Assembly: GCA_021107635.1 (NCBI GenBank)
Contig: JAIOSL010000050.1
Span: 1 to 54,794, forward strand
Source of the DNA: an archaeon
Lineage (GTDB): Archaea > B1Sed10-29 > WALL01 > JAGHAM01
Length of the DNA stretch: 54,794 nucleotides
Reading direction: 5' to 3'
The translations under genes were made by a program, and so were the position numbers. Positions 32,538 through 38,341 of this stretch are shown here, piece by piece. Below the pieces are notes generated by a model. The model worked only from the letters and a program-made list of their open reading frames with translations, made no database searches and was not told the origin of the DNA. Position 1 is the first letter of the stretch. Each line of letters opens with the position of its first letter.

Positions 32538-33023
32538 TCAAACCCCTAACGCGATGAGTGATGTGACAAGAAGCTCTTCTTCAGAGGTTTTTAGGTAGTT
32601 GTAGTATCCAGTAAATCCTTTTCCTGTTCTTGAGAAAAGAGGAAAGTGAAAACCAGTAAGTTGGAATGCGCCTATTCTAGTTCCATCTTTGTATATATCA
32701 TAATCTCTGTTGAGTGGATTGATTTTTTCTTTGATGTAGAAGTGTGTTCCGTCTCCATCGCTGATTTTGATAGTGTTTGAGACGCCTAAGAGAGTTTTAA
32801 CATAACCAATTTTCTTATTTCCTTTGTAGATTTCTGCACGTCTATTAATGTGTCCGGTTCTATGAATTTTGTAGATTTTTGCGTTTGGTAGGCTGTTCAT
32901 CCAGCGTACGCCGATTTCTTTCTCATAGATGTTTCTAGTTACAGTGATTTTTTCTGTTTTTCCTTGTCGTTTTACGGACGCGGTTGCATCACCCAAGCTA
33001 CTGGTAATCTGAAATTCTACCAT
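32538..33023 (-). CDS. hypothetical beta-rich protein, possibly LURP-one/tubby-like
   Basis: Repeated short beta-hairpins (YKIH, EIYKGNKKIG, DIYKDGTRIG) and a C-terminal hydrophobic helix. Confidence 0.5.
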   Translation of the reverse strand: MVEFQITSSLGDATASVKRQGKTEKITVTRNIYEKEIGVRWMNSLPNAKIYKIHRTGHINRRAEIYKGNKKIGYVKTLLGVSNTIKISDGDGTHFYIKEKINPLNRDYDIYKDGTRIGAFQLTGFHFPLFSRTGKGFTGYYNYLKTSEEELLVTSLIALGV

Positions 33024-33029
33024 TCTAAT

Positions 33030-33386
33030 TCACGCTTTCCATCGTTTGATGAAGCTTCCCCAGATGTCGCTCATTTCGGTACAGCGGTTGGTGAATTGCT
33101 CGGAGAGAATCCATTCGCTGTCTACTTTTGTTATGAAACCAGCGTCTCTGAGCTTGGAGACTGTAGTATAGTATTCCTGGTGTGTTGCTCCTAACTCTTT
33201 CTGGAGTTGTTCCCATTCTTTGGATGGTATTCTTTTTCTCTCAACTATCATATAAATAAACTTCTGTGCCAGCTTGGCGTTTTCTGGTTTGCGATAGTAT
33301 AAGTTCTCGAGTATTGTTAACAGATCAGGAGTACGTTCTCGAGATTTTATTCGTAAAGTAGTTTCGTATTTTGCCATTTTACTCAC
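33030..33386 (-). CDS. putative winged-helix DNA-binding protein
   Basis: EWEQLQKELGATHQEYYTTVSKLRDAGFITKVD, an HTH plus wing pattern. Confidence 0.65.
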   Translation of the reverse strand: MSKMAKYETTLRIKSRERTPDLLTILENLYYRKPENAKLAQKFIYMIVERKRIPSKEWEQLQKELGATHQEYYTTVSKLRDAGFITKVDSEWILSEQFTNRCTEMSDIWGSFIKRWKA

Positions 33387-34696: not shown

Positions 34697-34738
34697 GTTT
34701 TTTGCAAAAATGGGGGTGTGAGAGTTAAGTTTTTTGCA
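34697..34738 (+). repeat. 42-bp element, copy B
   Basis: GTTTTTTGCAAAAA-tggggg-TGTGAGAGTTAA-gt-TTTTTGCA; overlaps the stop codon of 34725-35009. Confidence 0.85.
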
Positions 34739-35009
34739 CAGTTGAAATTTTTTCTATCCTGCGAAGCACTGTTTCAAATTCACGGGCCAAATCTTCTCCC
34801 TTTTCTGTTAGCTTGACTATTTTAATTCTACCCTCTCTATCAAAGACCACTAGACCAGCACTAGCAAACTCATCTAGAACATTAACCATATGTGCGTAAG
34901 TACAGTCAACATCCTTAGCTAAAAGAGACGCATACCAAGTACGGTCCTTCTCAGAAAGCGCTACTAGAGCCCTTACAGGCTTTTCATTGATAAAAAAATT
35001 TGATTGCAT
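34725..35009 (-). CDS. MarR-like winged-helix protein
   Basis: YASLLAKDVDCTYAHMVNVLDEFASAGLVVFDREGRIKIVKLTEKG; GGAGG RBS. Confidence 0.85.
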   Translation of the reverse strand: MQSNFFINEKPVRALVALSEKDRTWYASLLAKDVDCTYAHMVNVLDEFASAGLVVFDREGRIKIVKLTEKGEDLAREFETVLRRIEKISTVQKT

Positions 35010-35162
35010 ATACTCATCCTCCAGTTTAAATATAGATTTTTTAATTAATCTATTCTAGTTTATATAATTAACTGTATATATCCAAGTTATTGAAGTCAAA
35101 AAAAGATTTAGAAAAGAATATTTAAGAAAGTATATTTTATAGTTGATAGTGAGAAGTGAAAA

Positions 35163-35571
35163 AAGTGAGAGTTGAGAAAGAAAGAACTAAAAAATGAAAA
35201 AAGGAGTAGAGTGGATAAGAAAGAGTAGGGACAAAGTAGGAAAGTAGTAAAAAGTGAGAATTAAGCAAACCAGAAACATGAGGATATGAGATAATGAAAG
35301 TTAGAACCGGAGAGGGTTAAGATAATAGAGAAAAAGTGAGAGTTACACTAAAAACAAGGAAAAAAGCAGAAAAAACTATAGATCCTTAAACAAGTGAGAA
35401 TTAGAACATATAACAGTAAATAACTAACTAAAGTAGAAAAAAGTGAGAGTTGGCCCCCGTGAGTATCTTTCTAACAACCCTACATTAATGCACCATTAAA
35501 CACCAGCTAACAACACGTAACATTACGTAAAAAAAGTGAGAGTTGACGTAATATTACGTAAAGTGAGAGTT
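35163..35571 (+). repeat. array of seven co-oriented AAGTGAGARTT 11-mers in a long intergenic region
   Basis: Copies start at 35163, 35252, 35334, 35392, 35441, 35534 and 35561. Confidence 0.9.
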
Positions 35572-35611
35572 AGAGCAAAGCCATATAAACTTGTTATGTG
35601 TAAGTGCTTCA

Positions 35612-36328
35612 ATGGGATTGATTGACTGGCTCACAAGAAAGAAAAGTGAGAAAAAGTCAGAATTAAAAAAACAACTTGAGAAGAAACAAGTAAGTGAGAG
35701 TACAGTCACAATCCAAAAAAGTGAGATCCTACCAATAGAAACACCAGATGTCTACTCTCCAACAGTTGAACACCCATTATTGACAATACAAGACAGGATA
35801 TCTAAATTAGAGGAAATCTACCGCAGCCTCAACGAAAAAATAGATAAAAAGGTAGCAACACGTGAAGATACTGATGAACTCAAGGTTTTGGTCGGTCAAA
35901 CCCTAGATAAAAGTAATGATATAATAGGTAATATTACCAATCTTGACCGGAAACTCGCTCTATTAGACGGAAAGAAAGAAGAGTTGACACGTAAAATAGA
36001 CACGTCAACTTACGAGTTGACACAAGATTTAAGCAACCTTCAAAATGTAGAACGCTCTATAAAGCTCTTAGAAGCAGACAAAAAGATACTTGAGGTATTA
36101 GGAGACAAAGAACTTAGCACAATAGAACTCTCAGAAAAATTAAGTTACACAAGACAGTATCTTTGGGGCAGACTAAAGCAGATGCAGGCGGATGGACTAG
36201 TAACGAGCTTTAAAAGCGGAAGACAAACCAAATACATAAAAAATAAAGATAAGCTAAATGACATGACAAATAACACGTCAAATGACATACCACTTGACGT
36301 ATTAGATTACATGTCACATGACGCGTAA
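35612..36328 (+). CDS. coiled-coil protein with C-terminal ArsR-like winged helix
   Basis: Heptad region, then KILEVLGDKELSTIELSEKLSYTRQYLWGRLKQMQADGLVTSFKSGRQTKY; ATG 35612 about 25 nt after CATATAAA. Confidence 0.85.
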   Translation: MGLIDWLTRKKSEKKSELKKQLEKKQVSESTVTIQKSEILPIETPDVYSPTVEHPLLTIQDRISKLEEIYRSLNEKIDKKVATREDTDELKVLVGQTLDKSNDIIGNITNLDRKLALLDGKKEELTRKIDTSTYELTQDLSNLQNVERSIKLLEADKKILEVLGDKELSTIELSEKLSYTRQYLWGRLKQMQADGLVTSFKSGRQTKYIKNKDKLNDMTNNTSNDIPLDVLDYMSHDA

Positions 36329-36388
36329 ACTAGATATTACGTTACATTACGTAAAATATACGCAATACGTGGAAAACAACTAAAACCC

Positions 36389-36412
36389 AGGACCCCCCAC
36401 AGTTCCGGTATT
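36389..36412 (+). repeat. 24-bp inverted repeat, left copy
   Basis: AGGACCCCCCACAGTTCCGGTATT; 21/24 match to the reverse complement of 37953-37976. Confidence 0.85.
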
Positions 36413-36538
36413 CATATACCTGATGTTTCCCGCTAAAAAAAGGAGAGAAAGCACCAAACAAAGACGAAAAGGTTTATATACTCCTTCTGCGTTATACTTC
36501 CTTATTAGCTAGAATGCTAATAGGAACGGGTGAAACCA

Positions 36539-36856
36539 ATGATTCACATTTCAGAGCTCTATGGTATAGATATATACGGAGATGACGGAAAATATGTTGG
36601 CAAAGTAAATGATGTTATACTCAATCTTGAAAAAGGAAGAGTAGTAAGAATCACAACCGAGCCACTCAGGTTTGTTTCCAAGGTTCAAGCCAAGAGCGTC
36701 TTAAAAGAAAAAAGTATACTTTACAAGAATGTTAGAACAGTAGGAGATATCCTAATAGTAGGTAGGGGAAGGAATACATCACCCTCTGATGAAGAAGTTA
36801 AAGTAGAACTACAAAAAAGACGCATGGGAAGAAGCCTTTTGGGGAGAACAAGGTAA
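36539..36856 (+). CDS. PRC-barrel domain protein (CdpB-like)
   Basis: ISELYGIDIYGDDGKYVGKVNDVILNLEKG ... VRTVGDILIV; ATG after GGTGA. Confidence 0.9.
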   Translation: MIHISELYGIDIYGDDGKYVGKVNDVILNLEKGRVVRITTEPLRFVSKVQAKSVLKEKSILYKNVRTVGDILIVGRGRNTSPSDEEVKVELQKRRMGRSLLGRTR

Positions 36857-37952: not shown

Positions 37953-37976
37953 AATACCGGAAGTAGGGGGGGTCCT
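37953..37976 (-). repeat. 24-bp inverted repeat, right copy
   Basis: Plus strand AATACCGGAAGTAGGGGGGGTCCT. Confidence 0.85.
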
Positions 37977-37978
37977 AG

Positions 37979-38269
37979 ATGAAAGATTGTCTATGGGAGC
38001 TTTTACAGCGTATCCCAAAGGGAAAGGTCACTACATATAGTGAGTTAGCGAAAGTGTTAGGTACCTCTCCTAGAGTAATAGGTAGTCTACTTCGTTCTAA
38101 TAAAGATTTAGATAGTATTCCTTGTTATAAAGTAGTTATGTCAAATGGTCAATTGGGTGGTTATTCTTTAGGTGTTACTGAGAAGGTTAAGAGATTACAT
38201 AAAGATGGAGTTTACGTAAACAAAGGTAAAATAGCTAGTTTTGATACTGTTTTGTTTAGCTATCAGTAG
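37979..38269 (+). CDS. single-domain O6-alkylguanine DNA alkyltransferase (MGMT family)
   Basis: IPKGKVTTYSELA, SPRVIG, IPCYKVV (PCHR-like), LGGYSLG. Confidence 0.9.
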   Translation: MKDCLWELLQRIPKGKVTTYSELAKVLGTSPRVIGSLLRSNKDLDSIPCYKVVMSNGQLGGYSLGVTEKVKRLHKDGVYVNKGKIASFDTVLFSYQ

Positions 38270-38341
38270 CGGGGGTTGGATTTGAACCAACGACCTTCGG
38301 GTTATGAGCCCGACGAGCACTCCTAGCTACTCCACCCCGCT
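38267..38341 (-). tRNA. tRNA-Met(CAT), initiator type
   Basis: AGCGGGG/CCCCGCT acceptor stem (A1:U72), anticodon arm TCGGG-CTCATAA-CCCGA with three G:C pairs, T-arm GTTGG-TTCAAAT-CCAAC; CCA not encoded. Confidence 0.96.

Follow-up and report, generated by a model that had tools for sequence, protein, structure and literature searches.

A coiled-coil winged-helix protein encoded beside a phased box array: a candidate DNA–membrane tether in an archaeal order

The gene, its product and its relatives

We analyzed a 54,794-nucleotide stretch of archaeal DNA (the window; contig JAIOSL010000050.1 of assembly GCA_021107635.1, forward strand), in which an intact open reading frame (ORF) encodes an uncharacterized 238-residue DPANN protein with a long coiled coil followed by a C-terminal winged helix. 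An array of short co-oriented boxes lies just upstream and reaches into the coding sequence. A first-pass annotation, made from the letters alone, had proposed that the protein, a candidate DNA-bridging factor, tethers this array, possibly to the divisome through the neighboring PRC-barrel protein. We find that the gene and the boxes are conserved together, that the boxes are phased along the DNA, and that a second motif, a palindrome, brackets the gene. The organisms carrying this family are uncultivated, and all functional steps discussed here, including the motif bound, the oligomeric state, membrane binding and the cellular role of the protein, are inferred. The gene and its product are laid out as follows.

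35612–36328, + strand: coiled-coil winged-helix ORF in the ORF list of the window (238 aa, 27.4 kDa, pI 5.9)
Residues 1–12: MinE/SepF-like peptide (MGLIDWLTRKK)
Residues 13–48: disordered K/E/S linker
Residues 49–83: helix with the invariant motif VYSPxVEHPLLTIQDRISKLEE
Residues 84–163: stalk helix
Residues 164–211: ArsR-type winged helix
Residues 212–238: acidic tail, confined to the closest relatives

The ATG at 35612 is a likelier start codon than the TTG at 35591: of 24 homologues, 22 start with M-G-(L/I/F)-x-(D/E)-(W/F)-(L/F) at its position. We are confident that the C-terminal domain is a winged helix of the ArsR/SmtB type (Pfam HTH_24/HTH_5/HTH_20 clan). HTH_24 matches residues 154–198 with 24.3 bits (cut-off, 21.9 bits), and the family profile retrieves the ArsR-like structure 2oqg from the PDB (E = 2.5e-7); the NCBIfam HTH_metalloreg (ArsR/SmtB) match is weak and below threshold (25 bits versus a cut-off of 55). 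An AlphaFold2 monomer model built from 24 sequences (mean pLDDT 74) has a low-confidence N-terminal helix, disorder at 28–54, helices at 55–78 and 84–163, and a winged helix at 164–210 with pLDDT above 90. With Foldseek, the winged helix alone was matched, and the top matches were all of the ArsR/SmtB type (HlyU, CzrA, SmtB and SqrR; probability 1.0). The C-terminal winged helix seen in the first pass is thus borne out by Pfam, the PDB profile search, AlphaFold2 and Foldseek. The long coiled coil, also called there, is well supported as a prediction, both by the two modeled helices and by a heptad pattern over ~110 residues, in which positions a and d are hydrophobic at frequencies of 0.68–1.0, compared to 0.12–0.19 at other positions.

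The protein contains no Cys and only two His, neither of them within the winged helix, and is therefore not an ArsR-type metal sensor. The conserved region of the family stops after the wing, and the alpha-5 dimerization helix is absent. Within the ORF, inverted repeats (GTTGACACGT...ACGTCAAC, 35982–36024) coincide with a conserved protein repeat, ELTR..D.ST.ELT; they may be selected as DNA or be a by-product of codon choice.

A word-based search returned 26 homologues (44–73% identity), publicly named as winged-helix regulators and assigned to 'Candidatus Diapherotrites archaeon', and a profile search of 1.84 billion representatives gave 17 clusters at E ≤ 1e-30. In one order ("Ca. Diapherotrites"), 11 of 13 genomes carry the family as a single chromosomal gene, on contigs of up to 1.17 Mb with conserved synteny; L001 lies at ~763–776 kb on the 1.17-Mb contig. 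A search with the family profile found no member in the phylum's 18 remaining genomes. A GTG-started homologue (MRGLFPFLKSLFKN...) is found in another order of the same class (genome G016). The profile search also brought up shorter relatives of 146–225 aa with the same architecture: an M(G/S)(F/L)(L/F)D..L..KKK peptide, a basic linker, an E(D/E)PLITVSRQL helix, a long helix and a winged helix. For one of these distant relatives, the layout is also predicted, and a profile–profile comparison of the family with the distant relatives aligned the winged helix and the preceding helix with 99.6% probability. Two further candidates, L069 (G009:C25) and L070 (G017:C11), were rejected as members of a paralogous family that has neither the N-terminal peptide nor the array. 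This separate family of ~140–170-aa 'long helix + winged-helix' proteins is also represented in the source genome (contig C54:4966–5262), and its gene at L069 adjoins one for a KaiC/RadA-like ATPase.

The box array is nearly genome-unique, conserved and phased

The array and the elements around it are arranged as follows.

35010–35150: AT-rich tract (81% A+T) with TATA-like elements for a divergent gene
35149–35571, + strand: array of co-oriented AAAAGTGAGAG(TT) boxes, with 74% purines on this strand
Starts at 35163, 35252, 35334, 35392, 35441, 35534 and 35561, + strand: exact 11-mers of the array
35149 and 35459, + strand: degenerate GTGAG cores
35582–35590, + strand: TATA-like CATATAAAC, 22–30 nt before the ATG, as read from the sequence
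35642–35727, + strand: three in-ORF boxes, with GTGAG cores at 35646, 35694 and 35721 in K-S-E / V-S-E codons

From 35163 to 35571, the + strand carries seven exact copies of AAGTGAGARTT where 0.14 would be expected. Elsewhere in the 1.2-Mb genome there are only two exact copies, both within long ORFs (C26:7095 and C38:6888). We considered a wider box regulon and rejected it, as these two copies and a half-site cluster on contig C39 all lie within long ORFs and look like chance occurrences.

Boxes of the type AAAAGTGAGAGTT adjoin the gene in all 18 loci examined (12 of the order, five distant ones and the G016 locus), in genomes with GC contents of 34–56%. Upstream of the gene, GTGAG(A/G/T) cores are over-represented in each of the 12 loci of the order (2–10 copies, oriented with the gene) and also in each of the five distant loci (3–7 copies, all in the opposite orientation). 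A logo drawn from 81 sites in the 12 loci reads AAAA-GTGAG-A-G-(T)(T) and holds in genomes of 56% GC. At L086 (G016:C2), in the other order, four longer 24-bp repeats ending in the same core, TTTTAGGCACTACA(C/T)GTGAG, replace the A-tract boxes upstream. The pairing of array and gene noticed in the first pass is therefore real: gene and GTGAG boxes are co-conserved throughout.

The spacing of the boxes is not random. Distances between adjacent boxes have their strongest period at 11.0 bp (vector strength 0.48, phase 5.6 bp), a periodicity reached by none of 3000 jittered controls. For spacings of up to 100 bp, 25 of 44 are congruent to 5 or 6 modulo 11, corresponding to about 11n+5.5 bp. The phasing holds when each genus contributes a single locus (p = 0.0007), with the window removed (p = 0.006), and in each of two families taken separately (p = 0.013 and 0.044). 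It follows that consecutive boxes tend to lie on opposite helix faces, and the phasing points to a stereospecific protein–DNA assembly, not to scattered operators. It likewise argues against a role at the RNA level. An array acting as RNA, either as a long 5' untranslated region or as a protein-sponge non-coding RNA, was considered since the purine-rich strand carries all of the boxes; it is unlikely given the half-turn phasing at 11 bp and a conserved TATA-like element located 3' of most boxes; no Rfam match to the array was found.

The array continues over the first 125 nt of the coding sequence, and in-ORF boxes are also present in L001, G001, G010 and G012. The spacings involving the in-ORF boxes of the window (83, 48 and 27 bp) fit the 11n+5 rule. 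The first-pass annotation had placed a TATA box directly after the array. A TATA-like element is indeed present there, and similar elements occur in homologous loci; the array, however, does not end at this point but continues with the three boxes inside the ORF. As judged from its position, CATATAAAC would give a leaderless or short-leader mRNA.

ACGT-core palindromes and the proposed membrane attachment and autoregulation

A second set of motifs brackets the gene.

35515–35561: promoter-proximal ACGT-core palindromes, with TTACGTAA at 35523–35530 and 35554–35561
35546–35559: 14-bp palindrome ACGTAATATTACGT; the promoter-proximal set is interleaved with the last two boxes
36332–36375: post-stop palindrome cluster, with TTACGT at 36337 and TTACGTAA at 36347–36354

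The ACGTAA/TTACGT cluster at the promoter is the densest in the genome (six in 300 bp, compared to 0.36 per kb genome-wide), and 5 of the 18 TTACGTAA sites of the genome fall within 2.7 kb at this locus. The TTACGTAA units, often ~10 bp apart as in TTACGTAATATTACGTAA, are found at the promoter in the window and in four relatives. A palindrome cluster directly after the stop codon, typically of 2–6 copies ~10 bp apart, is present in 11 of the order's 12 loci. The acidic C-terminal tail of the protein (…PLDVLDYMSHDA, window 36250–36328) occurs only in the source genome and its closest relative, and the DNA encoding it resembles this downstream cluster (TTGACGTA, ACATGTCACATGACGCGTAA); together with the boxes at the 5' end, both ends of the ORF thus overlap clusters of cis elements.

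The first-pass annotation had the protein bind the boxes directly. This is not supported by a comparison across clades, in which the palindromes change with the recognition helix of the protein and the boxes do not: TRQY is found with TTACGTAA, SRQYAA with TGTCAATTGACA, and SRTWVS with TTAACATGTTAA, the boxes being constant throughout. TGTCAATTGACA flanks the TATA box in L058, L083 and L084 (helix SRQYAAMRL), and TTAAC(A/G)TGTTAA is present in L056 and L057 (helix SRTWVS). Because of this covariation, the palindromes are likelier than the boxes to be the direct target, and we infer that the 238-aa protein reads the palindromes and autoregulates. The boxes may be read by the 238-aa protein, by Orc1, or by the product of the divergent gene on the far side of the array, which is an equally good candidate.

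34725–35009, − strand: divergent winged-helix gene, 94 aa, MarR/HTH_45-like with weak Pfam winged-helix matches

Homologues of this 94-aa protein (55–77% identity) are encoded directly across the array in every class locus, including that of G016, and they are more conserved than the 238-aa protein. A homologue with 44% identity is encoded at L058, the only one of the five distant loci where it was found. Clusters of boxes or palindromes were found nowhere else in the genome, so there is no regulon, which fits a dedicated cis/trans module.

The N-terminal peptide of the 238-aa protein consists of a hydrophobic/aromatic patch of 6–7 residues with one acidic residue, followed by a run of Lys/Arg. 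It is kept across both clades, and the adjoining K/E/S-rich linker of 20–60 residues varies in length and sequence. The same pattern, M-(G/S/A)-hydrophobic x2-(D/E)-aromatic/hydrophobic x2-3 and then R/K-K-x-K, is shared by the N-terminus of Neisseria gonorrhoeae MinE (MSLIELLFGRKQK, from the PDB sequence) and that of family member P0015 (MGILELIFRGKHK). The source genome also encodes, on another contig, a SepF whose N-terminus, MAGFLNKFKGK, resembles the peptide of the 238-aa protein. In this SepF (C26:5607–5981, 124 aa) the peptide is followed by an acidic linker, the same peptide + linker design. Given the resemblance of the conserved pattern to the MinE and SepF N-termini, it is reasonable to suppose that the peptide plausibly binds the membrane, as those targeting sequences do.

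Our preferred account, which may well be correct but which we hold tentatively, is that a lineage-specific protein binds the palindromes bracketing its own gene as a coiled-coil oligomer, within a phased box complex, and attaches the locus to the membrane. The C-terminal ArsR-fold winged helices would recognize the ACGT-core palindromes, as TTACGTAA units ~10 bp apart, at the gene's own promoter and after its stop codon, and binding there would repress transcription of the gene. The gene would lie inside a larger stereospecific nucleoprotein assembly on the phased AAAAGTGAGAGTT array, spanning the promoter and the first 125 nt. At the other end of the molecule, the N-terminal peptide on its flexible linker would insert into the membrane in the manner of the MinE and SepF targeting sequences. 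The protein would thereby hold a single chromosomal locus at the membrane, resembling Noc, RacA and TubY in action and unrelated to them in descent. The tether role is needed for the arrangement to make biological sense, since a pure self-regulator would have no obvious purpose. The candidate tether of the first-pass annotation thus survives in its architecture, with a candidate membrane tip, a stalk and a DNA-binding head that are real and kept in distant relatives; direct reading of the boxes is less likely than that of the palindromes, and the link to the divisome is weak.

Several points weigh against this account. The binding specificity is deduced from sequence covariation, and within the order the palindrome variants TTACGTAA and TGACGCGTCA do not cleanly track changes in the recognition helix. 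The R-Q-Y that opens this helix is conserved in two clades and could equally fit the invariant boxes. Within the class, linkage to the array is as tight for the small winged-helix gene as for the coiled-coil gene. The modeled structure is that of a monomer, and the coiled-coil dimer or higher oligomer is putative. The helical hydrophobic moment of residues 2–12 is unremarkable (0.32, rank 110 of 227 eleven-residue windows), so that the amphipathic start described in the first pass is conserved as a peptide but is better viewed as a hydrophobic/aromatic patch plus a polybasic run. The tether, argued from analogy, is the least tested step.

Alternatively, the protein could be an ordinary soluble transcription factor, i.e. 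a coiled-coil-dimerized ArsR-fold repressor acting through the palindromes on its own gene and on divergent or neighboring genes. The N-terminal peptide would then be a partner-binding or degradation signal, and the box array would be read by another factor. The ArsR/SmtB-type fold, the palindromes at the promoter (flanking the TATA box in distant relatives), the combination of invariant boxes with a variable recognition helix, the ordinary hydrophobic moment and the public annotation as a winged-helix transcriptional regulator all agree with such a protein. A repressor of this kind would, however, have no regulon to control, as palindrome and box clusters are absent from the rest of the genome. 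It would also leave unexplained why the peptide and its variable linker are kept in very divergent relatives and match known membrane-targeting sequences, and a stalk of 80–110 residues is unusual for it. The first-pass annotation had named a simple ArsR/TrmB-like repressor as the contrary case to bridging; the Cys/His content excludes the metal-sensing form, and we regard the soluble repressor in general as a possible but somewhat unlikely explanation.

Replication, the PRC-barrel neighbor and the wider locus

Two copies of a GC-rich element lie downstream of the gene.

36389–36411, − strand: GC-rich element ATACCGGAACTGTGGGGGGTCCT, forming an inverted pair with the next
37954–37976, + strand: second copy, ATACCGGAAGTAGGGGGGGTCCT; a copy is found at the equivalent position in L001

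The consensus of the element is (G)AATAC(C/T)GGAA(G/C)T-N1-4-GGGGGG, and it is found directly after the homologous gene in L001, L002, G006, G010, G012, G001 and G016. In the window, the inverted ATACCGGAAGT-N-GGGGGGTCC pair encloses three genes. A half-site, ATACCGGAAG, is located immediately upstream of orc1/cdc6 in two genera (C21:10924 in the source genome and G007:C13:120632), and ATACCGGAAGT-N-GGGGGGTCC could be a site for Orc1 or another winged-helix protein.

These elements raise the question of whether the locus is a replication origin or terminus, with the boxes and ATACCGGAAGT...GGGGGG read by Orc1/Cdc6, as divergent origin recognition boxes (ORBs) or mini-ORBs, or by a fork-barrier protein, and with the coiled-coil protein as an accessory that regulates or anchors the site. 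The array occurs once per genome, it adjoins the 81% A+T tract, and the conserved G-string elements are inverted. In each of the three genomes with the locus and orc1 on one contig (G007:C13, G012:C1 and G003:C45), orc1 lies 17–29 kb upstream. This distance means that orc1 is not adjacent to the locus; in the source genome it is on another contig, running off the end of C21. Coding-corrected GC skew was computed on five large contigs. On G007:C13 (168.5 kb), the only one of the five with a switch at the locus, the skew changes from +0.082 to −0.086 within ~2 kb of the gene, at ~100–103 kb, and not at orc1, 17 kb away. The switch was not reproduced in G012:C1 or G003:C45, and the window shows a shift without a change of sign. 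Moreover, in G007 the G-rich strand and the genes converge on the locus, a terminus-like polarity that conflicts with the nearness of orc1. Neither the boxes nor the GC-rich element fits the euryarchaeal ORB consensus, GTTCCAGTGGAAAC-AAA----GGGGG (PMC1868953), well, and identity with a canonical ORB was rejected on this ground. The boxes, in addition, are all co-oriented and do not flank an unwinding element. Our literature search on DPANN origins found nothing. The evidence for an origin or terminus is inconsistent, and we consider this explanation distinctly unlikely.

One broader idea combines a landmark with the tether that we favor. The phased boxes, ACGT palindromes and G-string elements would together form an unrecognized cis-acting chromosomal landmark, either a centromere-like anchor or an origin/terminus, and the coiled-coil protein would be its dedicated membrane tether, an independently arisen archaeal counterpart of Noc, RacA or PopZ–ParB. 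We judge this proposal unlikely.

The genes around the array are arranged in a conserved order: the divergent ~90-aa winged-helix gene, a long intergenic region, the coiled-coil gene, sometimes a TraB-like gene, the PRC-barrel gene, and then genes for a ~210-aa protein, a 72-aa HTH protein, an MGMT-C-like protein and a Na/H exchanger. Further elements in the window are the following.

32538–33023 and 33030–33386: ~160-aa gene and AF_0843-family (PF27297) gene, a pair conserved upstream in all relatives examined
~36472, + strand: TATA-like TTTATATA of the PRC-barrel gene, as read from the sequence
36530–36856, + strand: PRC-barrel gene, 108 aa (PF05239, E = 1.3e-9), 200 bp downstream of the ORF
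38266–38341: tRNA-Met

Because this gene order is conserved on large chromosomal contigs, a mobile element is ruled out. An integrated element beside tRNA-Met was considered specifically and rejected, since the gene is single-copy and syntenic in 11 of 13 genomes, including on a 1.17-Mb contig, and is accompanied by neither an integrase nor a transposase. Among the neighbors there is no tubZ or tubR, and no gene for a ParA, TubZ or ParM motor is nearby. The protein is not CdvA-like, as the PRC barrel is encoded by a separate gene and no cdvB/C is found among the neighbors.

The PRC-barrel gene was the basis on which the first-pass annotation had linked the array to the divisome, and the gene itself is confirmed. 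Throughout the class, G016 included, it lies 0.2–0.9 kb downstream of the coiled-coil gene. In haloarchaea, the PRC-barrel proteins CdpB1-3 function in division via SepF, and most PRC genes are stand-alone, often beside translation or RNA genes (10.1101/2023.03.28.534520). Class-level synteny weakly suggests a link to the divisome through the PRC barrel. The PRC gene of the window has its own TATA-like element, a TraB-like gene is interposed in some genomes, and no PRC gene is present in the loci of the five distant relatives; a tether to the divisome through this protein is therefore weakly supported. The source genome encodes three PRC paralogues, each of them at most a putative CdpB-like protein. 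About 300 bp downstream of the second (C1:22639–22902) is an intergenic mini-site (C1:22280–22340; AAAAAAGTGCAAG...ACTTTACGTAAGATTACGAAA) composed of a box-like motif and TTACGTAA, which could have arisen by chance (~5% by rough estimate).

The model of the first-pass annotation in full, with direct binding of the GTGAGAG boxes by the protein and a bridge from the array to the division machinery via the PRC-barrel protein, is very unlikely: the universal association of gene and array, the R-Q-Y common to two clades, the nearness of the PRC gene and the presence of SepF alongside the CdpB precedent speak for it, but the changing recognition helix beside invariant boxes argues for another reader, and the separate promoter-like element, the interposed gene, the distant loci and the usual company of PRC genes all count against the second half.

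Comparison with known systems

Chromosome positioning and segregation in archaea, above all in reduced-genome DPANN, are to our knowledge largely not understood, and we know of no DNA–membrane tether comparable to Noc, RacA or ParB–PopZ described in DPANN. A literature search for the architecture of peptide, coiled coil and winged helix likewise found nothing.

In Noc, the nucleoid occlusion protein of Bacillus subtilis, an amphipathic helix at the N-terminus targets the membrane and is linked to a domain that binds specific DNA sequences; the protein recruits sites on the chromosome to the membrane. Noc is a ParB-family CTPase that uses ~70 dispersed sites and spreads along DNA. The 238-aa protein is like Noc in having an N-terminal peptide joined to a DNA-binding domain, and the peptides would be analogous only. 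It differs in its ArsR-fold winged helix, borne by a coiled-coil stalk, and in having one compact motif cluster, and there is no sequence relationship; Pfam and NCBIfam scans of the protein found no ParB domain.

RacA, MatP and TubY combine a DNA-binding domain with an oligomerizing coiled coil and link DNA sites to a cellular structure, TubY through a basic membrane-binding tail. The 238-aa protein also pairs a DNA-binding domain with a coiled coil. In those proteins, however, the DNA-binding domain is N-terminal and of the MerR or ribbon-helix-helix type, whereas here it is a C-terminal winged helix, and their sites are either dispersed (ram, matS) or belong to a TubZRC plasmid, in contrast to the one compact cluster of this locus. 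PDB sequence and fold searches with the protein gave no MatP, MerR-type or RacA/TubY match. The first-pass annotation had cited MatP as a precedent; kinship is not borne out, MatP being a ribbon-helix-helix protein with dispersed matS sites.

The resemblance to MinE and SepF is limited to the first ~12 residues; neither the MinD-contact helix nor the alpha/beta dimer domain of MinE is present, and the SepF core is missing as well. With the ArsR/SmtB repressors (2oqg, HlyU, CzrA), the 238-aa protein shares fold and sequence and probably a palindromic operator near its own promoter. Unlike them, it lacks metal or redox ligands and the alpha-5 helix, so that dimerization would come from the N-terminal stalk of ~110 residues, and it has a membrane-type peptide. 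The Dip divisome-positioning system was considered and set aside, as it is made of unrelated protein types, namely a GTPase, a DUF2073 protein and a Zn-ribbon protein (bioRxiv 10.64898/2026.05.19.726155).

At the level of DNA, the closest parallels are iteron plasmids, whose Rep proteins go with direct repeats and an inverted-repeat operator, and the ParR–parC and TubR–tubC centromeres, dedicated modules that similarly bring together an AT-rich tract, co-oriented repeats, promoter palindromes and a winged-helix gene. The boxes described here differ in being thinly spread, their distances being irregular multiples of 11 bp plus half a turn, compared to tandem repeats on one helix face. The WH1–WH2 architecture of iteron Rep proteins is absent, and the module is chromosomal and conserved across the class.

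New in the present work are the co-conservation of gene and boxes, the near-uniqueness of the boxes in the genome, their presence within the ORF, the ~11n+5.5 spacing and palindromes that vary by clade. Even if the protein is a pure autoregulator, a phased and deeply conserved array that overlaps coding sequence still needs explaining, the in-ORF DNA having to serve as binding sites and to encode K-S-E at the same time. The locus is a compact system for work in vitro, with a 27-kDa protein of separable peptide, stalk and head and a ~600-bp target that occurs once per genome. Set beside the known systems, the protein repeats a theme in which a DNA-binding domain is combined with a coiled coil and a membrane or partner anchor, here newly built on the ArsR fold.

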